Positions 2 through 12,786 of a stretch of 64,000 bases of DNA are shown here, piece after piece (position 1 is the stretch's first letter; each line of letters starts with the position of its first letter). The notes beneath the pieces are model-generated. The model made no database searches, had not been told where the DNA came from, and worked only from the letters and a program-made list of their open reading frames with translations. This stretch comes from Candidatus Latescibacterota bacterium. Lineage in GTDB: Bacteria > Latescibacterota > UBA2968 > UBA8231. The stretch lies in NCBI GenBank assembly GCA_965203175.1, contig OZ241867.1, forward strand, positions 1,120,001 to 1,184,000, read 5' to 3'. Made by a program: the position numbers and the translations under genes.

Positions 2-742
2 GAACGGGCACAGCAATACGGCGTGGGAGCCTGCGTCGTCCGCAACGTCGGGCACTGGGGACGCGGGCACAGCTACGCTTTGCGGGCCGCTCGCGCCGGC
101 TTGATCGGCCTGGCCTTCACCAACGCGTTCGCCAACTTTCCCGCCTGGGGCACGCGCGTCCCTTCCCTCGGCAACAATCCCCTCGCCATTGGCATTCCCA
201 CCGCCGACGGCGAGCCCGTGGTCCTCGACTTGGCCATGACCCAATCCTCCATAAGCCGCGTGCGTCAGGCCGAGGCTGCTGGACGCAGCGTCCCCGAAGG
301 TTGGGGCTTGGACGAGCGCGGAAAGCCCACTACGGATCCAAGTGTTCTGCTGCAATCGTGGCGCTTTTTGCCCATGGGTCAGCACAAAGGCTCGGGACTT
401 GCTTTTATGGTCGATCTACTCACGGCAGGACTGGCCGGCGGCCTCCTCGCTTTTGAGCAGGGCACTGAGGGGCGGCCAACGGATTCGGCCGGCGGCTCCA
501 CCAAGTGCTTTATCGCCCTCAAGCCCTTTGGCGACTGGCTGCACAGCCGCAGCGCCGATCTGAAGGCCCATATAAAATCGGTAGAAGCAGCACCCGAGCA
601 GGGTCCAGTGCAGTGGCCGGGCGAAGGCAGTTATCAGCGGCGCGCCGACTACCTAAAACACGGCATCGCCCTCGAAACCACCTTGGCCAACCAAGTGGAC
701 GAATTGGCCCGCGACTTGGCAGTGCCAATTCGCTGGGCTTGA
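2..742 (+). CDS. Ldh_2 family (malate/L-lactate/sulfolactate dehydrogenase-like) oxidoreductase, 5'-truncated by window edge
   Basis: Motifs RNxGHxG, LGNNPLAIGIP, VLDLAMT, GQHKGSGL, WPGE. Confidence 0.85.
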   Translation, partial: ERAQQYGVGACVVRNVGHWGRGHSYALRAARAGLIGLAFTNAFANFPAWGTRVPSLGNNPLAIGIPTADGEPVVLDLAMTQSSISRVRQAEAAGRSVPEGWGLDERGKPTTDPSVLLQSWRFLPMGQHKGSGLAFMVDLLTAGLAGGLLAFEQGTEGRPTDSAGGSTKCFIALKPFGDWLHSRSADLKAHIKSVEAAPEQGPVQWPGEGSYQRRADYLKHGIALETTLANQVDELARDLAVPIRWA

Positions 743-5337: not shown

Positions 5338-6206
5338 CTATGATTCCCAGGGAACGGGGACATTGATCTCCGTGGCAATGCGCTGCAACACGTCGAGGTG
5401 GTCTTCGGTCAGCGGAATACCACTATGCTCGCGTGTTTGCTCGCGTTGCCACTCCAAGCTGCCTGGGACTTCGGCGCTTGCCAGTCCCGGCATGGGGTTT
5501 AGCGACCGGCTCTCGCGCAAAATGCGAGCAAGCTCTGCCTTATACGCCTCCAAGTCGCCCAACCTCGCCACATCAATCGCCACCAGCGTAAATGCCCGCG
5601 TGGCACTTGCAAATTTTGGTCTGCTCGATTCAGGCGTCGCCGTGCCCGCTAAAATGCCCGCCAAGAACCACGACGTAAATCGCATCCCCAAACTCTTGAA
5701 AACAAAGTCTGGAAATGTCTGCAGTGCTTCGGCGAGTTTGCTGCGGTCTTTCAACATGTTCGCATTCATATCCAACACAAACGGCGGCCCTTCTGCCGTT
5801 GGAACGCCAAAACACATCGGAGGGGCACCCATCGCATCCCACACTGTTGCATCGGGGTGCGTCGGTTTTTCCCAAGCAACACCTCCCGCCACGGAAAAGG
5901 TCGCCAAGTCGCGCACCAGTGCCAGCCGCGCATAAATCCCCACGCTGCCCACGTGCCCGTGATTGCGCGTACACACAACGGCAATGCCGTTTGCTTTCGC
6001 CTTTTCAATGACGTCCTCTGTCGCCTGCGTTGCCACCAAGTAACCCGCACCGCCGTCGCCGTCAAAAATCGCCATTGAGGGGGCATCCATGATTTGAGCG
6101 ATTTCAGGTCGGGGATTAATACGCCCTTCGCGAAACTCAGCCACATACCGCTGCAACTGGCGCGTGCCGTGCGAGACCACCCCGCGCAAATCCACATCCA
6201 CCAGAT
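5338..6206 (-). pseudogene. Ldh_2 family oxidoreductase, 3' part; interrupted by IS1595-family element
   Basis: DLRGVVSHG, RNHGHVG, VLDM motifs; missing N-terminus lies at 11617-11745 and rejoins in frame (…ARYLV|DVDLRG…). Confidence 0.9.
6199..6206. repeat. Target-site duplication (left) CACCAGAT
   Basis: Identical to 11617-11624. Confidence 0.92.
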
Positions 6207-6229
6207 GGGAATAATATACTATTTTGCCC
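6207..6229 (+). repeat. Left terminal inverted repeat
   Basis: Imperfect inverted complement of 11594-11616. Confidence 0.9.
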
Positions 6230-6281
6230 CAATTCTCGCGTAACCCTCTTATTTTTCAACTAAATCCTTAGTTTTCACTCC

Positions 6282-6310
6282 TTGCCTTGCCCGTCGTTGT
6301 TTCTTACCTT
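6282..6310 (+). promoter_or_regulatory. Putative sigma70 promoter TTGCCT-17-TACCTT
   Basis: Correct spacing; predicted start (~6317) coincides with the 5' end of a long stem. Confidence 0.45.
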
Positions 6311-6317
6311 TACTCTT

Positions 6318-6466
6318 GTCTGACTTCCTTTGCAGAGACCCCGCGTTGCTACTTGGCAATGTCGGGTCATCTGCTGAATACAACAGCCGAGACCCGGCAA
6401 GGGGTAGCGCCCCGCGCTGCGGCGAATAGGCAGAGCTTCTTCTGTTCTCTGCAGAGGACGTTGGAC
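6318..6466 (+). ncRNA. Candidate structured RNA of unknown family
   Basis: 21-nt closing stem 6318-6338/6446-6466 (20 pairs incl. 3 G-U, 1 mismatch) enclosing several internal stems, e.g. 6360-6368/6391-6399. Confidence 0.55.
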
Positions 6467-6565
6467 TGGCCCGGCCTTCCCATCGAAGGCCCTCGCCTGC
6501 TTCCGTCCAAGGGGTAGGCGACCACACGCTGGCTATTCATAACTCCCGTCCAAGGAGTGTCCATC

Positions 6566-7189
6566 ATGGTTCGCCATCTCGCCATCGTTATCGTATTCTG
6601 CGCTCATTCTATTATAGGCTGTGCAATAACCACAGACCCTAATAAGCCTAATACGTTCAAAAACGGGGAATCGTGGCACTTTATACAAAACGACAAGGCA
6701 CTTAGTCTTATATCTGCTCCAGCAGCATATTTAGGATCATTGTCGTATATAAACATTATATGTCATTATGGGGTATCCAGTATCTCTAATGACTGTATCA
6801 CGATGCTCAATTTTGTTACTTATCCCCAAAATTATGGAACCTTCCCTACGCTTGAACCTATTGAGGTAGTAGTGATGTTTACCAAGAATAAGACTAATGA
6901 TAGGCGACTATTTACTTTTTATTCGTTCAGGAAAGGCTTGATGTTATCGCCAGAACACGTAGATGAATTTATCGATTCAATATCGTCGTCCGATAAAGTG
7001 GCTTTTGGTTTAAGGTGGAAAAAAATACAAGCCACCCGCGACACGCATCACAGTGCCGCTTTTCAATTTAATCTCCAGAAAACAGAAATCGCAATCAAAC
7101 GATTTAAGAGTTTGGTTTTGACCAAGACTAAAAAGGGGAAAACTAAGATCAAACGAAAAGCTGCCGATATTGTAAGGGATTATTTGTAG
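6566..7189 (+). CDS. Hypothetical exported/lipoprotein (IS passenger)
   Basis: RBS AAGGAG 8 nt before ATG; hydrophobic N-terminus with lipobox-like IIGC. Confidence 0.6.
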   Translation: MVRHLAIVIVFCAHSIIGCAITTDPNKPNTFKNGESWHFIQNDKALSLISAPAAYLGSLSYINIICHYGVSSISNDCITMLNFVTYPQNYGTFPTLEPIEVVVMFTKNKTNDRRLFTFYSFRKGLMLSPEHVDEFIDSISSSDKVAFGLRWKKIQATRDTHHSAAFQFNLQKTEIAIKRFKSLVLTKTKKGKTKIKRKAADIVRDYL

Positions 7190-7219
7190 GCGGCACGGAG
7201 ATAAAGGCTCCGTGCCGCC
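7189..7219. terminator. 12-bp perfect GC hairpin, no U-tract
   Basis: GGCGGCACGGAG-ATAAAGG-CTCCGTGCCGCC directly after stop codon. Confidence 0.45.
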
Positions 7220-7253
7220 AAGCCATCACCCATAACCATAGGAGGAACAGACG

Positions 7254-7532
7254 ATGGCCGAAAATGAGCGTATAGAAAAACTTGAAGCCAATATAGGAAG
7301 CCTTATGGGACACATTGCCATACTGCGTCTTATAAACTTTCAGCTAGTGGAGCATGTTAAAGCAGACTGCGAGGCCGAGTTTTCCCTAATGCTTTCTACT
7401 TTACAAAAAGCGCAGAAATACCACGCAGAAAACGCCGAACAATACCAGACTCCTTATTACAACGAACTCGCTGACGCGTTCTCTGATACACTGGATCATC
7501 TCCAAGGAACTCGTCTGCCGTCACTGGATTGA
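7254..7532 (+). CDS. Small helical hypothetical protein (IS passenger)
   Basis: Strong RBS AGGAGGA; 92-aa ORF. Confidence 0.55.
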   Translation: MAENERIEKLEANIGSLMGHIAILRLINFQLVEHVKADCEAEFSLMLSTLQKAQKYHAENAEQYQTPYYNELADAFSDTLDHLQGTRLPSLD

Positions 7533-7657
7533 ACGGAACAAACTCCGAATTAGGCACTCGCCTCCGATACTCGCGCAGAATATGGACACTATCTTTTTTT
7601 GACAACATAATGCATCTCCTTGTGTGGAGTATGAGTGAAACTGCTCTCATAAATACC

Positions 7658-7693
7658 AAAGCCCCACGTCATAATAACATGACGTGGGGCTTT
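7658..7693. terminator. Bidirectional intrinsic terminator-like hairpin
   Basis: 15-bp perfect stem AAAGCCCCACGTCAT/ATGACGTGGGGCTTT between convergent genes. Confidence 0.7.
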
Positions 7694-7720
7694 ATTTTTA
7701 TATATTTTAATATAGGATGA

Positions 7721-7861
7721 CTATTTCTTGTCGTCTTTCTGATCTTTCTTGTCTTGCTTGGGTTTATTACGGAGATCGGACACAGGAGTATCGGCACACC
7801 TCTTGAGTAATTCTTCAGGGGTCAGATTAATCTTTACTCTGGGCGATTTATTCTTTGCCAT
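7721..7861 (-). CDS. 46-aa basic protein overlapping the transposase 3' end
   Basis: MAKNKSPRVKINLTPEELLKRCADTPVSDLRNKPKQDKKDQKDDKK; not in ORF track, read manually. Confidence 0.5.
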   Translation of the reverse strand: MAKNKSPRVKINLTPEELLKRCADTPVSDLRNKPKQDKKDQKDDKK

Positions 7862-8765
7862 TACATGATACCTTAACGCGAACCCCCTGCGAACTGTCTA
7901 GCAGTTTATTCACCTTCTCCGGTGGCTCCATATCTTTGGCATTTTGTCGAAAGGCGAACTCGGCCAAGTAAAAGTCCATATACTTCTTGCTCCAGTGGTG
8001 GAACGTGCCCCGATATCCGCGCCGCAATAATGCCCACATGGATTCAATGCCGTTGACGTGGACATCACCCTCCGCATATCGCTTCCTTGAATGATTGATC
8101 GTCTTATGATCGTAGCTTTCGCTAAGACCATTATAGCCCGAATTTTCGTCCGTGTAAAGGGTTGACCCCTCTTTGGCGTGACGGCGAATAAAGTCATGTA
8201 AGGCTTTCATATTCGCAAAGGAAACGTGCTCATATCTAACCTTGCCGTTACGACCACGCATACCCACAACGGGCATCTTACCCGCTCCACCACGCGCCGT
8301 GGGGTCTTTCTTATCAAAGTGCTTCCACTTCTGCTGGCCACCCATATACACCTCATCAACTTCCACCTCCCCACTTAGCTGTTCCTGCTCTTCGGCATCG
8401 TTTCCAGCGGCAGCACGTAACCGCGTCAACATACGCCATGCCGTCTTTTGCGAAACGTCTATGGTGCGAGCCAGTTGGTAGCTGCTTATCCCCTTGGGCG
8501 AATTGGTCGTGAGCCAAACTGCGGCGTACCACTTCCTAAGCGGAATATTGCTCCCCTCAAATACCGTGCCCTTACGTACCGAGAACGTATAACGACAATC
8601 ACCACAGCGAAACTGGCCATCCGATCTTTTATAGATGCGAGAGGAGTTGCAACGCAAGCATTGAGCGCCGTCCGGCCACCTCACCTTAGCAAAGTGGTCA
8701 ATGCACTTCTGCTCGGTATCAAACTCCCATAATAGGGCGACAAGGCTTTTAGCTTCGATTTTCAT
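7848..8765 (-). CDS. IS1595-family transposase
   Basis: RWPDG+CxxC…CxxC zinc ribbon, GTVFE, VSQKTAW, EVDE.Y.GG, YTDE, H.NGIES.W..LRR, YLAEFAFR.N. Confidence 0.95.
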   Translation of the reverse strand: MKIEAKSLVALLWEFDTEQKCIDHFAKVRWPDGAQCLRCNSSRIYKRSDGQFRCGDCRYTFSVRKGTVFEGSNIPLRKWYAAVWLTTNSPKGISSYQLARTIDVSQKTAWRMLTRLRAAAGNDAEEQEQLSGEVEVDEVYMGGQQKWKHFDKKDPTARGGAGKMPVVGMRGRNGKVRYEHVSFANMKALHDFIRRHAKEGSTLYTDENSGYNGLSESYDHKTINHSRKRYAEGDVHVNGIESMWALLRRGYRGTFHHWSKKYMDFYLAEFAFRQNAKDMEPPEKVNKLLDSSQGVRVKVSCNGKE

Positions 8766-8775
8766 AACACCATGT

Positions 8776-8804
8776 AATATAACAATTTACGAGTATTTTG
8801 TCAA
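8776..8804 (-). promoter_or_regulatory. Transposase promoter TTGACA-17-TATATT
   Basis: Near-consensus; -10 is 10 nt from ATG, so a near-leaderless mRNA. Confidence 0.65.
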
Positions 8805-8902
8805 GCTGAACACTTGTTCATTTTAGTTATAAGACTTGACAGGGAAAATAGATTAGCTATTGGCCCCAGTAACCTCTTGACGATGTTCAATCGATCTTTA
8901 TA

Positions 8903-9172
8903 ATGGAGCATCAAGACTATACGTGCGCCGTCTGTGGCGAGCGGCTGGAACAGGCAGGGGCCGAGTTAGATCACAAGGTGCCTATTCATCTCGGCGGGTC
9001 TAACCACGTCAGCAACTTCCAAGCGACGCACAGGGCATGCAACAGATCCCGGTCGTATCGGGCGGATTTGATATGGGCGCGGCCAGAGCAGGTGGGTGGC
9101 GACGGAAAGCGGAAGTACTACTGGAGCAAGAAAGACGTGGAGGAACTAGTAACAATACTGGCGCGGGCTTGA
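8903..9172 (+). CDS. Minimal HNH endonuclease
   Basis: CAVCG…ELDHKVP..LGGSN..SNFQ..H..CN. Confidence 0.8.
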   Translation: MEHQDYTCAVCGERLEQAGAELDHKVPIHLGGSNHVSNFQATHRACNRSRSYRADLIWARPEQVGGDGKRKYYWSKKDVEELVTILARA

Positions 9173-9197
9173 CAGAATTAGCCTGCAACCGTATAAT
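9169..9197 (+). promoter_or_regulatory. Perfect sigma70 promoter TTGACA-17-TATAAT
   Basis: Exact consensus at 9169-9174 and 9192-9197. Confidence 0.85.
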
Positions 9198-9200
9198 AAA

Positions 9201-9336
9201 ATAGGCTTGGAGTAGCCCCAAGCTACCGCAAGCCTATAGCGCAACTCCTTGTGACACAACAAGTTAGCCAACCGAAAGGAGATGCTTATACCACACAGGA
9301 TAACGAATTAAACCGATAGGCGCAAGGGCTATTTTT
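9201..9336 (+). ncRNA. Structured leader or small RNA
   Basis: Hairpin ATAGGCTTG..GTAGC-CCCAA-GCTAC..CAAGCCTAT (9201-9237); GCAACTCCTT/AAGGAGATGC (9241-9285); weak stem plus T-run near 9316-9336. Confidence 0.4.
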
Positions 9337-9374
9337 CCGTGTCCGTTAATCGGTTTAAAAAGGGAGAATACGAT

Positions 9375-9644
9375 TTGCTTTACATAGTTATTGATATGGA
9401 AACCGAAAATGGCGAAGGCACCCAGACAAGCCTTTACCATAAAATAAACGAGCTTGGTTATACGAATCGTAAGATGACTAGTTCTACCACTATGGTTTCA
9501 TGCGATCAAACAGCAGAAGAGCTGGCAAACAGTATCGGAATCGGAGAAAATAAAAGCAGTGGAGTTGTAAATGCTGTAGAGAATTATTCTGGTTTTGCAG
9601 AAAAAGACTTCGTGTCGTGGTTTAGAATTCACAAGAATAAATAG
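9375..9644 (+). CDS. Small Cas2/GhoS-like ferredoxin-fold protein, copy 1
   Basis: RBS AAGGGAG then TTG; MLYIVID start, beta-alpha-beta pattern, C-terminal YSGF…VSWF; similar to 10779-11039. Confidence 0.55.
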   Translation: MLYIVIDMETENGEGTQTSLYHKINELGYTNRKMTSSTTMVSCDQTAEELANSIGIGENKSSGVVNAVENYSGFAEKDFVSWFRIHKNK

Positions 9645-9651
9645 AATACTT

Positions 9652-10044
9652 ATGGCTAAATTTGACAGTCTTTACGACGACACTGGAGCATATATTGGAC
9701 CGGAAGGAGACGATCCTTTGACAGACAATATGCAACTTATTCATAATCAACTAGCAAGTCTTAACAATAGGCTAAGTAGTATGGATGGAAGATTAAACGC
9801 TATGGATAATAGACTGACAAGTATAGATAATCGTTTAAATTCTTCAGATACACAGACAAGAGATACGGATCAAAAGATTTTTAGTTTATCAAGAAATGTT
9901 TGGATTTTAATTGGTGGAATAATTCTTCTAGGCTGGATTGCAACTCCATTTTTAAATGCTTATGCGAAACAAATATTCTCTTATGAGTCGCAACAGCAGA
10001 CTGTTTCTACAATTAAAAACATGCCGGAAGAAAAGACCGACTAA
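9652..10044 (+). CDS. Coiled-coil plus single TM protein, copy 1
   Basis: Heptads LNNRLSSMDGRLNAMDNRLTSIDNRL then VWILIGGIILLGWIA. Confidence 0.7.
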   Translation: MAKFDSLYDDTGAYIGPEGDDPLTDNMQLIHNQLASLNNRLSSMDGRLNAMDNRLTSIDNRLNSSDTQTRDTDQKIFSLSRNVWILIGGIILLGWIATPFLNAYAKQIFSYESQQQTVSTIKNMPEEKTD

Positions 10045-10068
10045 ACATCTATATTTCGCGGATATAGC

Positions 10069-10103
10069 AAAGCCCCCGTCACAAGGCGTGACAGGGGCGT
10101 TTT
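10069..10103 (+). terminator. Intrinsic terminator-like hairpin
   Basis: GCCCC.GTCAC-AAGGC-GTGAC.GGGGC followed by GTTTT. Confidence 0.6.
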
Positions 10104-10121
10104 AGGTGAGGGAAGGGAAAC

Positions 10122-10159
10122 AGGCTTGATATAGTCCCTCACTGCTCTATATCAAGCCT
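10122..10159. repeat. 13-bp perfect inverted repeat
   Basis: AGGCTTGATATAG…CTATATCAAGCCT; shares AGGCTTG/CAAGCCT arms with the hairpin at 9203-9235. Confidence 0.7.
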
Positions 10160-10474
10160 TGTGGTATGCTTAGGACGTCTTGCTCGTCCATCGGTGCCAC
10201 CTCCTTTCTTTTATGGGATGCTGGAGTCTTGACCTTCAGCATCCCTGCTTTAATCATGCTCAGATCGAAACGGAAGGCGTTGATTCTGTCTTGCGACTTG
10301 TTCTTCACAGTCGATCATCGCCTTGCTCAACCTGCGATACGCTTTAGTCGAGAGTCGCTGAGTTTTGCGCGTTGCTCTTCTGTATAGCGAATCAAGTTTT
10401 AGATATCCCATATCGTCGTCTCCTTTTACGTATCTAATATACGCCCGATGTCGTCGCACCTGCAAGACTGGGGG

Positions 10475-10584
10475 CGTTTTTGGGGACCATTCTACTTTTC
10501 AGTCTTTTTCCTCTCTCGACATGGTCGTCCTAAGTGCTGTAAAAACAATGACATAATCGCCTGGGCAAATATACCTATTCTCCC
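10475..10584. mobile_element. Internal, diverged copy of the element's right end
   Basis: CGTTTT.GGGGACCATTCTAC and TGAC.TA.…CCTGGGCAA…CCC at the same spacing (103 vs 104 nt) as in 11506-11616. Confidence 0.8.
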
Positions 10585-10778
10585 TGCTCCTTCGCCCACC
10601 TAACCCCCTCTTTTCTGGGCCATTTCCCTTTAAATAACGCTATGGAGTTCAACCCTGTCCCTTGAGGCAACCTAATATATAAACCGTTGTTTCTATTACA
10701 TTTATGCAGCAGACTTGACAACAACCTTGCTCTTCCGCATCTTATCAGTCCCCAATAATACCTGCAAGGATATATTAG

Positions 10779-11039
10779 ATGGTGTATGCCATATCATGCG
10801 ACGACGTAAGCAGACTAAATAGCCTGTACATACTGCTTAGTCATCGTTATCTTTCTCATTTAGAATCATCTCCAAATATTTTGTTCGTCTCTGCTCCTAA
10901 GACAGCTAAAGAGATTTATGACGAGATCGCTGCAGAGGAGGGAGAAGGAGCGACAATAGTTATTTTAGGCATACAAACATACTATGGGTGGGCTTCTCCC
11001 CAATTATGGGAATGGCTACATGTCCAGCTCAGAGCCTGA
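10779..11039 (+). CDS. Small Cas2/GhoS-like ferredoxin-fold protein, copy 2
   Basis: MVYAISCD…KTAKEIYDEI…YYGWASPQLWEWL; TTGACA at 10715 and RBS AAGGA upstream. Confidence 0.6.
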   Translation: MVYAISCDDVSRLNSLYILLSHRYLSHLESSPNILFVSAPKTAKEIYDEIAAEEGEGATIVILGIQTYYGWASPQLWEWLHVQLRA

Positions 11040-11310
11040 TAGAAATCAATCGGGAAAGCCCGATGATCAGAAAACTAGTCCTCCTGAAATAATAGGGGAT
11101 GTAGGCCCTTGGATATTAAAGAGTTTCAATGATTTAAATGAACGATTTGACTCTATTGACGGCAGACTGGATAGCATCGACAAAAATATAAAGTGGCTTA
11201 ACAGACTCGCGTGGTTCGTTATTGCTTGCGTGGCTATCTTTATTTTTATCTGTTTCATGTTTATTCGACCAGCCATCCCTTTCGTTCTAAAAAAGCTATT
11301 CCCCGGCTAA
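11020..11310 (+). CDS. Coiled-coil plus single TM protein, copy 2
   Basis: LNERFDSIDGRLDSIDKNI then AWFVIACVAIFIFICFMFI; overlaps upstream gene. Confidence 0.7.
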   Translation: MSSSEPDRNQSGKPDDQKTSPPEIIGDVGPWILKSFNDLNERFDSIDGRLDSIDKNIKWLNRLAWFVIACVAIFIFICFMFIRPAIPFVLKKLFPG

Positions 11311-11316
11311 TTTTTC

Positions 11317-11345
11317 TTGACGTGGTTCATCTGTAGTGCGATAAT
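11317..11345 (+). promoter_or_regulatory. Promoter TTGACG-17-GATAAT with extended TG
   Basis: Read directly. Confidence 0.6.
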
Positions 11346-11399
11346 AAAAGCAAGAATATATGGCTTTTGAATAATATAAATCTCCTCTATGGAGATTCG

Positions 11400-11486
11400 A
11401 TGGCCAATATAGTAATTATCATAAAGTTGGCACTATCGCATTTATTCAACGACCCCAACCTAAACGATCACGTCTCCCAAGAGTAA
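11400..11486 (+). CDS. Possible 28-aa peptide MANIVIIIKLALSHLFNDPNLNDHVSQE
   Basis: Own promoter; GGAG RBS within AATCTCC/GGAGATT stem. Confidence 0.3.
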   Translation: MANIVIIIKLALSHLFNDPNLNDHVSQE

Positions 11487-11593
11487 TATCCCTCTTTCTC
11501 TTCGTCGTTTTAGGGGACCATTCTACGTCATCTTCTTTTTCTCCCCGAATATCCTCTCTCGTAACTATCTCTCTAACAGTGACTTATCGGCCT

Positions 11594-11616
11594 GGGCAAG
11601 ATAGTGCCTTATTCCC
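11594..11616 (-). repeat. Right terminal inverted repeat
   Basis: GGGCAAGATAGTGCCTTATTCCC followed by the TSD. Confidence 0.9.
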
Positions 11617-11745
11617 CACCAGATAGCGCGCAACCAACGCAGCATCGCCGTCGGGCAAATCGACTTTACACAGCACTTCGGTGGTAAAATCGCGCAACAT
11701 ATCCGGCATGATGCGCCTAGCGTCTTCGGGCACATAAACAGGCAT
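11617..11745 (-). pseudogene. Ldh_2 family oxidoreductase, 5' part
   Basis: RBS GAGGAG; MPVYVPEDARRIMPDMLRDFTTEVLCKVDLPDGDAALVARYLV. Confidence 0.9.
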
Positions 11746-11766
11746 GAAAGCCTCTCCTCTAAGTCG

Positions 11767-12786
11767 TCAGAAATCGTTCCTTACTTTCTCCGGCATCCCC
11801 GAACGGAGCGAATCCCAACACGCTAGTCCTGTGGCGACGACCCTAGCCCCTTCGCGGACGCCGACCCAAGGCTTTGCGCCGTTCAGGACGCAATCTGCCA
11901 TGTGCCGCAGCATGACGATCATCTCGCTGGCGTGACCTCGCTCCGATGAAAACTCGGCAGTGACCTTGCGCGAGGGCAGGTCGCCGGTGGGATCGAGGCT
12001 CTTTGCGCCATTGAGAATGGTGCCACGGGTCCCGTAAACGGCTAGGCTGTTCGTCGGGATATCGTGCGGGTGTACGATGCCGAGAAAGTTCGCAATGCGT
12101 CCGATCTTGCCGGATATAAACTTCACGTTGATGACGAAGTTGTCCTCTTGGGGATAGTTCGGCGCAACGCCACTGCGCAACCCGTAACAGTGGACTTCGT
12201 CGATATCGCCCATGAACCAGCGCAAAAGATCGATTGGGTGGCAGGCACCGCCCAAGATCAGGTCTTGCGGCATCTCAACTCGCCAAGGGGAGTAGTCATA
12301 GACCGGGCGGAGATCGTGAACGTAGTGGGACTCGGCCATGAAGAGCTCGCCGATTTCTCCAGCGTCGCAGGCGCGCTTCGCTTCGATGAAATCATACCTC
12401 CCGCGCAGACTCTGCGTGACGAGCAGCACTTTGCCCGACCGGTCAACAGCTTCCACAACCTGCTCCACTTCTTCCATAGTGTACACCATCGACTTGGTGA
12501 CCATCACGTGCTTGCCCGCGTCGAGCGCGGTCAGGATCTGTTGCGCGTGAAGCGGTCCAGGCGTGTAGATGCCGATGATGTCGAGGTCGCTGCGCGCGAC
12601 CAATTCGTCGAAATCAGATGTCAGAGCGTCGATCCCAAATTCGCAGCCGAGCGCTTCGAGCTTGTCCTGCCGCGCATCGCACAGAGCGGTGACGCGAACC
12701 GGTAAGCTGCTGTTTTCCGGCTGATTGGCACCAAGCAGCGTTCTGCCGTGGCCAAGCCCGGCGACGCCGATGCTGAGTTGACTCAT
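11767..12786 (-). CDS. Gfo/Idh/MocA family oxidoreductase
   Basis: GVAGLGHG, TPGPLH, GKHVMVTKS, GACHPID. Confidence 0.9.
   Translation of the reverse strand: MSQLSIGVAGLGHGRTLLGANQPENSSLPVRVTALCDARQDKLEALGCEFGIDALTSDFDELVARSDLDIIGIYTPGPLHAQQILTALDAGKHVMVTKSMVYTMEEVEQVVEAVDRSGKVLLVTQSLRGRYDFIEAKRACDAGEIGELFMAESHYVHDLRPVYDYSPWRVEMPQDLILGGACHPIDLLRWFMGDIDEVHCYGLRSGVAPNYPQEDNFVINVKFISGKIGRIANFLGIVHPHDIPTNSLAVYGTRGTILNGAKSLDPTGDLPSRKVTAEFSSERGHASEMIVMLRHMADCVLNGAKPWVGVREGARVVATGLACWDSLRSGMPEKVRNDF

Follow-up and report, generated by a model that had tools for sequence, protein, structure and literature searches.

Translational riboswitches and orphan candidates of this kind act through anti-SD and anti-anti-SD expression platforms. 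In the fold-back inhibition of IS10 and IS50, a structure near the element end decides on access to the SD of the transposase, while the ompA leader is a 5′ stem-loop that stabilizes its mRNA, and a paired 5′ end in general should protect an mRNA. The sRNA-Xcc1 RNA (RF02221), an integron-, transposon- and plasmid-borne small RNA of Xanthomonas, represents the structured RNAs that travel on mobile elements. IS1595-family elements are reportedly ‘transporter IS’ that carry passenger genes, and a conserved structured leader heading those genes is, to our knowledge, not part of the description of this family.

In this study, a 64,000-nucleotide stretch of a Candidatus Latescibacterota genome (hereafter the window) was analyzed, and an RNA carried there by an IS1595-type transposon was compared with these systems. 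Like translational riboswitches, it has a conserved, structured and covarying core in a 5′ UTR, occurs in several copies per genome, and possesses a closing stem whose 3′ strand could, by complementarity, pair with either its own 5′ strand or the SD region. Unlike them, it shows no coherent gene association pointing to a ligand, its competing helices reach the unusual length of ~20 bp, the closing stem (P1) is crossed by an additional covarying pairing (x1:a3), and it is carried by transposons across phyla and belongs to no Rfam 15 family. As in IS10 and IS50, a structure near the element end would govern SD access, and as in the ompA leader a paired 5′ end should protect the mRNA; however, the gene that would be controlled is cargo rather than the transposase, and the structure is a conserved multi-helix family rather than a simple hairpin. 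With sRNA-Xcc1 it shares the habit of a structured RNA travelling on mobile elements, but it is not a detectable member of RF02221, a candidate identity that was rejected as the RF02221 model gave no match at E ≤ 10 in the whole genome of origin. It differs from the IS110 bridge RNA and the IS200/605 omega RNA in that the element holds no IS110 recombinase, TnpB or IscB and that most copies lie far from a transposase.

The RNA is a real and conserved structured leader of mRNAs, uncatalogued and horizontally mobile, with evidence of alternative folding, from which we infer the mechanism set out below. We consider it fairly probable that the region is a cis-acting two-state translational switch leader of the first cargo gene of the transposon, and one copy of a mobile ‘promoter plus structured leader’ family. 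In line with the initial annotation, which had not recognized a family, Rfam 15 gave no match at gathering score in the whole window, and even at E ≤ 10 nothing overlapped the RNA in the window, in the two other copies of the same genome or in 17 related loci. The part of the literature available to us held no description of an IS1595-borne or sponge-symbiont leader RNA.

The host element interrupts a malate/L-lactate dehydrogenase-family (Ldh_2) gene on the minus strand, and its features are as follows.

6199–6206: left copy of the target-site duplication, 8 bp, CACCAGAT (sequence and empty-site contigs)
6207–11616: IS1595-type cargo transposon, 5,410 bp (ends read from the sequence, empty-site joints, AT-rich composition)
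6566–7189, plus strand: first cargo gene; the 207-aa product has a signal peptide and a lipobox, SIIGC (ORF and family scans)
7848–8765, minus strand: IS1595-family transposase (DDE_Tnp_IS1595 PF12762, 9.2e-44; zinc ribbon PF12760, 7.8e-10; NF033547, 1.5e-58)
11617–11624: right copy of the target-site duplication, CACCAGAT (sequence and empty-site contigs)

The inverted ends of the transposon, as read from the sequence, are GGGAATAA on the left and TTATTCCC on the right, and the element separates the C-terminal part of the Ldh_2 gene (5338–6201), whose Pfam match begins at profile position 33, from the N-terminal part (~11612–11745). Empty-site contigs were present in all three DNA runs, one per run, with 5418 bases skipped and joints at 6197 to 11616 or at 6199 to 11618, and one DNA contig of 5,469 bases crossed the insertion unaltered; therefore, the insertion is discrete and polymorphic. 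Its DDE_Tnp_IS1595 transposase, short inverted ends, passenger genes, 8-bp target duplication and exact empty site agree with the IS1595 transporter IS, and the 5,410-bp transposon is an ordinary IS1595 cargo element. No family match was found for the first cargo gene in Pfam, NCBIfam or PADLOC, and, the transposase excepted, no cargo ORF gave anything above cut-off in NCBIfam or PADLOC. ARAGORN reported no tRNA-like gene in 5500–12500.

Several other features of the transposon were observed. The last ~100 nt of the right end are duplicated (10475–10568 and 11506–11599, 1031 nt apart, 80–81% identity), which hints at a second element, nested or partial, or at an alternative end within the transposon. 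A stand-alone gene for an 89-aa HNH nuclease lies at 8903–9172, and its product matched the HNH part of IscB/Cas9d only weakly and in part (24 bits vs. cut-offs of 175–375). Further, two cargo ORFs (9595–10044 and 10984–11310), neither with a family above cut-off, have in common the repeated coiled-coil-like motif ‘D(G/N)RL(N/D)S(I/M)D’ and, after it, a hydrophobic segment at the C-terminus.

The RNA itself, which the initial annotation had placed just inside the left end of the element, indeed begins 111 nt inward of that end and is oriented inward, toward the gene of the 207-aa lipoprotein. Its parts, all on the plus strand, are listed below.

6282–6310, plus strand: promoter-like sequence, −35 TTGCCT (6282–87), 17-nt spacer, −10 TACCTT (6305–10) (sequence reading, family-wide positional enrichment)
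6318–6565, plus strand: whole leader RNA, from the predicted start at the P1 foot to the start codon (folding, covariance model, promoter position)
6318–6338, plus strand: P1 5′ strand (20 of 21 positions paired; covariation)
6346–6359, plus strand: TTGC/GCAA hairpin, an insertion private to the window copy (absent from the two other copies of the genome)
6361–6368, plus strand: x1, GUCGGGUC, with possible partners a1, a2 and a3 (family pairing counts)
6370–6374, plus strand: H_C 5′ strand UCUGC, pairing with 6430–34 (fully paired in 111 of 117 copies)
6375–6388, plus strand: near-invariant loop UGAAUACAACAGCC (also in copies found by the covariance model and not selected by pattern)
6391–6398, plus strand: a2, GACCCGGC, the partner of x1 in the initial annotation (pairing counts vs. 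shuffles)
6401–6413, plus strand: P3 hairpin GGGG-UAGCG-CCCC (4 of 5 pairs change on both sides)
6421–6434, plus strand: conserved GGCGAAUAG, then the H_C 3′ strand GCAGA (6430–34) (family alignment)
6446–6466, plus strand: P1 3′ strand, in the family also complementary to the SD region (covariation, duplex energies)
6468–6475, plus strand: a3, GGCCCGGC, 2 nt after P1 and complementary to x1 at 8 of 8 positions (family pairing, covariation)
6473–6491, plus strand: P4, local hairpin GGCCUUC/GAAGGCC, which takes up the 3′ part of a3 (predicted fold)
6542–6558, plus strand: SD hairpin ACUCC-CGUCCAA-GGAGU, with the SD GGAG at 6554–57 (sequence and predicted fold)

The gross structure proposed at the outset was confirmed. 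The outer stem P1 forms between GTCTGACTTCCTTTGCAGAGA (6318–6338) and TCTCTGCAGAGGACGTTGGAC (6446–6466) with 20 of 21 positions paired, including three G-U pairs (6321–6463, 6322–6462 and 6330–6454) and a single mismatch (6325/6459), and the patch is GC-rich in an AT-rich element (GC 0.573 at 6301–6600 vs. 0.377–0.457 at 6601–7500). The plus strand of 6310–6470 folded with an MFE of −76.4 kcal/mol (z −4.98, none of 200 shuffles as good), compared with −63.3 kcal/mol for the minus strand (z −2.87, 1 of 200 shuffles as good). Consistently with a plus-strand RNA, the G-U pairs are retained across the family, and the covariance model scored 22–28 bits on the reverse strand vs. 60–153 bits on the proposed one. 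The suspected promoter was also supported: P1 starts 7 nt after the −10 box, and although a strict sigma-70 consensus scan did not call the window promoter, a TTGNNN-16..19-TANNNT pattern ending 3–9 nt before the first P1 pair was present in 45 of 78 family representatives but in 1 of 78 when the window of the search was shifted by 25 nt. Given this fixed promoter distance, the transcript should begin at the foot of P1.

The inner helices of the initial annotation all exist as complementary words, whereas family comparison revised several of them. The CCCC/GGGG pairing stood the comparison. The pairing of TGTCGGGTC with GACCCGGCA, that is, x1:a2, was found with at least 7 bp in 49 of 117 copies (~42%) vs. 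5 of 117 shuffled ones. The GCTG/CAGC words are present, but they hardly vary and are overlapped by H_C. Three further proposals did not hold: the TTGC/GCAA hairpin is the private insertion listed above and not a family helix, TAGCGC/GCGCTG overlaps the CCCC arm and is not conserved, and GCAGA pairs family-wide with TCTGC at 6370–74 (H_C) instead of with TCTGT. Conversely, two covariation-supported helices had been missed, namely H_C (5 bp) and x1:a3 (8 bp). A further local partner of x1 is a1 (ACCCCG, 6338–43), directly after the P1 5′ strand; a longest-helix test for the a1:x1 hairpin was uninformative, as shuffles scored like the real copies.

The expected covariation among homologues was then found with two kinds of alignment, in both of which none of 500 shuffles reached the observed values. 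In the alignment fitted to the covariance model, on which the figure rests, 93.2% of cells were paired vs. 33–50% with slid partners, and 24 of 42 pairs changed on both sides. P1 was the best-supported helix, with 17 of 18 modelled pairs changing on both sides in 30 distinct copies. In a MAFFT alignment that was not fitted to structure, x1:a3 was paired at 99.0%, H_C at 98.7% and P3 at 81%, compared with 32–52% for slid controls; this set comprised 79 sequences, the window copy and 78 low-redundancy representatives, the latter chosen after a filter for 7 or more of the 8 x1:a3 pairs, which 112 of the 117 copies passed. Related genomes among the family copies are not independent.

H_C has the form N-CUGC with G-Y-R-G-N′ and was fully paired in 111 of 117 unique copies. 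Its first pair N:N′ was C:G in 71, U:A in 33, U:G in 6, G:C in 2 and A:U in 1 of the 117 copies and mismatched in 4; it showed 22 double-change cells in the MAFFT alignment, and copies found by the covariance model rather than selected by pattern added CUAC/GUAG and CUUGC/GCAAG. The x1 word has the family consensus GUCGGGUY. It matched a3, 2–3 nt after P1, with at least 7 of 8 pairs in 110 of 117 copies; 4 of the 8 pairs showed double changes in the MAFFT alignment, and the flanks covary as well (A:U in 7 of 7, G:U or G:C in 5 of 6, plus GCU:AGC, GGC:GCU and AUC:GGU). The family core further contains two near-invariant loops, UGAAUACAAYAGCC and GGCGAAUAG, where letter conservation holds by construction in the pattern-selected rows, since the pattern scan fixes 21 core bases.

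To delimit the family, BLAST detected two further copies in the genome of origin (79% identity over ~118 nt), and compensatory changes were already visible in the alignment of the three sequences. A covariance model built from them returned exactly these 3 matches in the own genome (139–153 bits), and it matched 62 of 101 relatives with 1–12 copies per genome, and 60 of 151 genomes of a phylum-wide sample, where the distribution was patchy (10 of 46 genera). Three genera are rich in the RNA, with 17 of 21, 18 of 20 and 15 of 15 genomes positive. Beyond the phylum, a scan of named MAG records with the 21-specified-base core motif gave at least 118 stretches, and among 80 of the loci 59 were full-length matches to the covariance model at E ≤ 1e-8. 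Judged by record titles, on which the phylum counts rest and whose MAG labels can err, ~32 of the 80 loci are from Latescibacterota and the named MAG records come from at least nine phyla, the other labels being Nitrospirales, Chloroflexota/Dehalococcoidia, Acidobacteriota, Gemmatimonadota, Alpha- and Gammaproteobacteria, Rhodothermales, Thermodesulfobacteriota and Binatia. Some record names allude to sponges (Poriferihabitaceae, Spongiihabitans and a ‘lac_sponge’ title). The near-identical core in unrelated phyla and the patchy distribution indicated horizontal spread. A distant BLAST of a plasmid collection and a pattern scan of viral contigs gave no match.

One locus labelled Gemmatimonadetes was observed to hold a Latescibacterota-type chromosomal copy nearly unchanged (150 bits), which reflects either a mis-binned contig or a very recent transfer. 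In genome G055, a group II intron domain (RF02005, 161 bits) lies at 2753–2976 of locus L031 on the minus strand, ~1.1 kb from an RNA copy.

The relation of the RNA to transposons is recurrent but not exclusive. Copies occur near IS1595 transposase genes in G010 (2.817 Mb) and at two places in G055 (C11, 1.191 Mb; C2, 0.417 Mb), G066 carries the RNA at two sites ~3 kb from transposases, and at several loci the sequence immediately upstream of the promoter is an IS1595-like end or a transposase C-terminus. In a related element (L023), the end and leader share 74% identity over 293 nt with those of the window and the transposase 3′ region 88%, while the cargo differs and the two cargo proteins are unrelated (E 0.63). 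With the window transposase as tblastn query, 8 of 169 loci matched, and the records concerned carry at least four additional phylum labels; the count is a minimum, as the flanks were only 400–1500 nt long. For most RNA copies only the promoter is seen upstream, and a transposase is near just one of the three copies in the own genome, so that the RNA is not specific to transposons. It is plausible that the IS1595 transposon serves as a vehicle for the leader family.

The sequences behind the RNA were then compared. By a crude automatic calling, 96 of 117 copies are followed by an SD and a start codon on the same strand within 40–230 nt, and a stretch of 10 or more hydrophobic residues opens 47 of these 96 downstream ORFs, while 17 of them carry a strict lipobox. 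A Pfam scan of 44 downstream ORFs, many of them N-terminal fragments, assigned any family to 11, and the families were mutually unrelated (dockerin/LRR, S8 protease, Mrr and MunI nucleases, DUF805, DUF4234, DUF898, LuxR and GT8). Two leaders were seen to head restriction-endonuclease-like genes (L142, MunI-like, 4.4e-10; L029, Mrr_cat, 7.7e-07), and the cassette is therefore not restricted to exported proteins. Coherent gene functions pointing to a ligand were not found among the 44 downstream ORFs. Thus, instead of regulating one pathway, the leader would serve accessory genes, often those of exported proteins, as a generic front end, and the heterogeneity of the genes weakens the reading as a metabolite-specific riboswitch. 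The candidate triggers are a global signal, a protein partner, temperature or mRNA ageing. As nearly every copy reads into an SD and a start codon, the RNA is an mRNA leader rather than the antitoxin, guide, scaffold or ribozyme-like RNA initially suggested, and evidence for any of these four roles was not found.

In one genus (g19), a conserved micro-ORF of 7–9 codons, MF(MF)KNxFx followed by a stop, was observed ~90–115 nt after the RNA at five loci. Its start codon and SD would be buried by a ~25-nt copy of the P1 5′ strand, and the arrangement could represent a version of the expression platform with a leader peptide.

According to the proposed mechanism, transcription would start at the foot of the 19–21-bp P1, which would enclose H_C, the two near-invariant loops and P3. 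Pairing within P1, between its 3′ and 5′ strands, would leave the SD free; the SD would be buried if the 3′ strand took as its partner, instead, a near-copy of the P1 5′ strand that lies downstream and includes the SD. The x1 word would pair within the core (with a1 or a2), or with a3 only if P1 is not fully formed, and the conserved core would sense a ligand or protein that shifts the balance between ON and OFF. Which of the folds is ON, and that the core senses a ligand or protein, is what we infer.

Two sets of evidence point to such alternative folds. On the one side, a3 lies beyond the outer end of P1 and x1 in the junction at its inner end, with a linker as short as 9 nt; by geometry, therefore, the 8-bp x1:a3 and the 19–21-bp P1 cannot coexist, and what can be said is that a pairing incompatible with P1 has been maintained by selection. 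Combined with the SD-burying helix, x1:a3 would form the topology of a classical H-type pseudoknot with a 2–3-nt junction. On the other side, the SD region and the sequence just upstream are often a near-copy of the P1 5′ strand. Among 67 representatives, the P1 3′ strand gave a duplex averaging −17.9 kcal/mol with the SD region of its own leader vs. −13.9 with the SD regions of other members (Mann-Whitney p = 1.3e-8), with extremes of −38 kcal/mol, and the MFE fold of the full leader picked the SD-burying helix in 6 of 17 leaders. When the ON and OFF folds were forced, they proved near-isoenergetic: the median difference was 4.3 kcal/mol and 28 of 60 leaders were within 5 kcal/mol, with the SD region paired at 0.51 in the ON fold vs. 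0.73 in the OFF fold. Folds with x1:a3 were on average worse than those with the local partners (−61.7 plus −12.8 vs. −82.1, nearest-neighbour energies), and by these energies the pseudoknot combination was likewise of lower stability than the local pairings.

In the sub-lineage of the window copy, the complementarity between the P1 3′ strand and the SD is weak (L023, −11.5; L024, −13.1), and the SD is there part of a small local hairpin; in the window copy, the loop CGUCCAA of this hairpin is complementary to UUGGAC of the P1 3′ strand. The ON/OFF logic of this sub-lineage may differ, and because of the weak complementarity in the close relatives, the control polarity of the window copy is the least certain part of the model. 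A tandem duplication was also observed in the window expression platform (6500–6515 and 6543–6558, 43-nt spacing), in which the first copy of the SD hairpin is degenerate (AAGGGG) and the second intact (AAGGAG).

Other readings of the family were weighed against a two-state switch. A static expression module, in which the promoter and a blunt 5′ stem stabilize the mRNA and insulate translation while the alternative pairings are by-products and nothing is sensed, would agree with a predicted start at the first paired bases of a long stem, with the unrelated downstream genes, which fit a generic cassette, and with ON being on average the stabler fold. However, a stabilizer needs neither near-invariant internal loops, nor a covarying x1:a3 that is incompatible with the stem, nor an SD region whose sequence follows that of the P1 5′ strand, and we regard this explanation as rather unlikely. 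That the RNA is a separate small RNA acting in trans, with conserved loops that bind or base-pair with other partners and with incidental ORFs downstream, is distinctly unlikely, although some loci would suit it. At the L004-type locus, which is flanked by a DUF1854 gene and a gene for a 329-aa protein of no known family, the RNA occupies the same chromosomal place nearly unchanged in at least 15 genomes of the genus, while the ORF behind its SD is short and decaying; genus g22 usually has one copy per genome (15 of 15 genomes), with no SD or ORF seen right behind the RNA; and, since all copies have x1 and a3 as the same words, pairing between copies in trans is conceivable. Against this, terminator scans found no intrinsic terminator after the RNA, the SD and start codon follow on the same strand in the 96 of 117 copies counted above, and the flanks of x1:a3 covary within each molecule.

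A role in transposition, as a guide, scaffold or antitoxin of the IS1595 element, was the proposal of the initial annotation, and it draws on the position 111 nt inside the transposon end and on the recurrence beside IS1595 transposases in several phyla. It is nonetheless disfavoured and very improbable, since most copies have no transposase nearby (one of three in the own genome; the 8 of 169 loci, a lower bound), the RNA reads into a cargo gene rather than toward the transposase, and the element lacks an IS110, TnpB or IscB-type protein, the only related signal being the partial match of its 89-aa HNH product to IscB, at 24 bits where the cut-off is 175. A self-cleaving ribozyme, or a DNA-level palindrome such as a protein-binding site, would have the compact fold of several helices and the invariant loops in its favour; both are scarcely credible, as no Rfam ribozyme family was matched even at E ≤ 10, and the G-U pairs and the strand asymmetry argue against a palindrome.

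Taking the two-state switch leader further, one may tentatively suppose, as a possibility short of a probable one, that the family is a new class of sensor RNA. It would be a promoter-equipped, plug-and-play translational switch whose invariant core binds a universal signal (a small molecule, an ion or a host protein) and which IS1595 elements have spread over at least nine phyla of one habitat, apparently sponge microbiomes, so that any cargo placed behind it is regulated alike in very different hosts. If the switch reading is true, an uncatalogued and unusually widespread structured RNA family would join the orphan regulatory RNAs, with a testable architecture of two long competing helices and a pairing that crosses them, and with a near-invariant core that offers a defined target for ligand screens. 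The cassette could be used as a broad-host expression part. For the elements themselves, it would mean that transposons can carry, beyond genes alone, a whole regulated cassette of promoter, leader switch and SD for their passengers, which would help explain how cargo is expressed after jumps between phyla.
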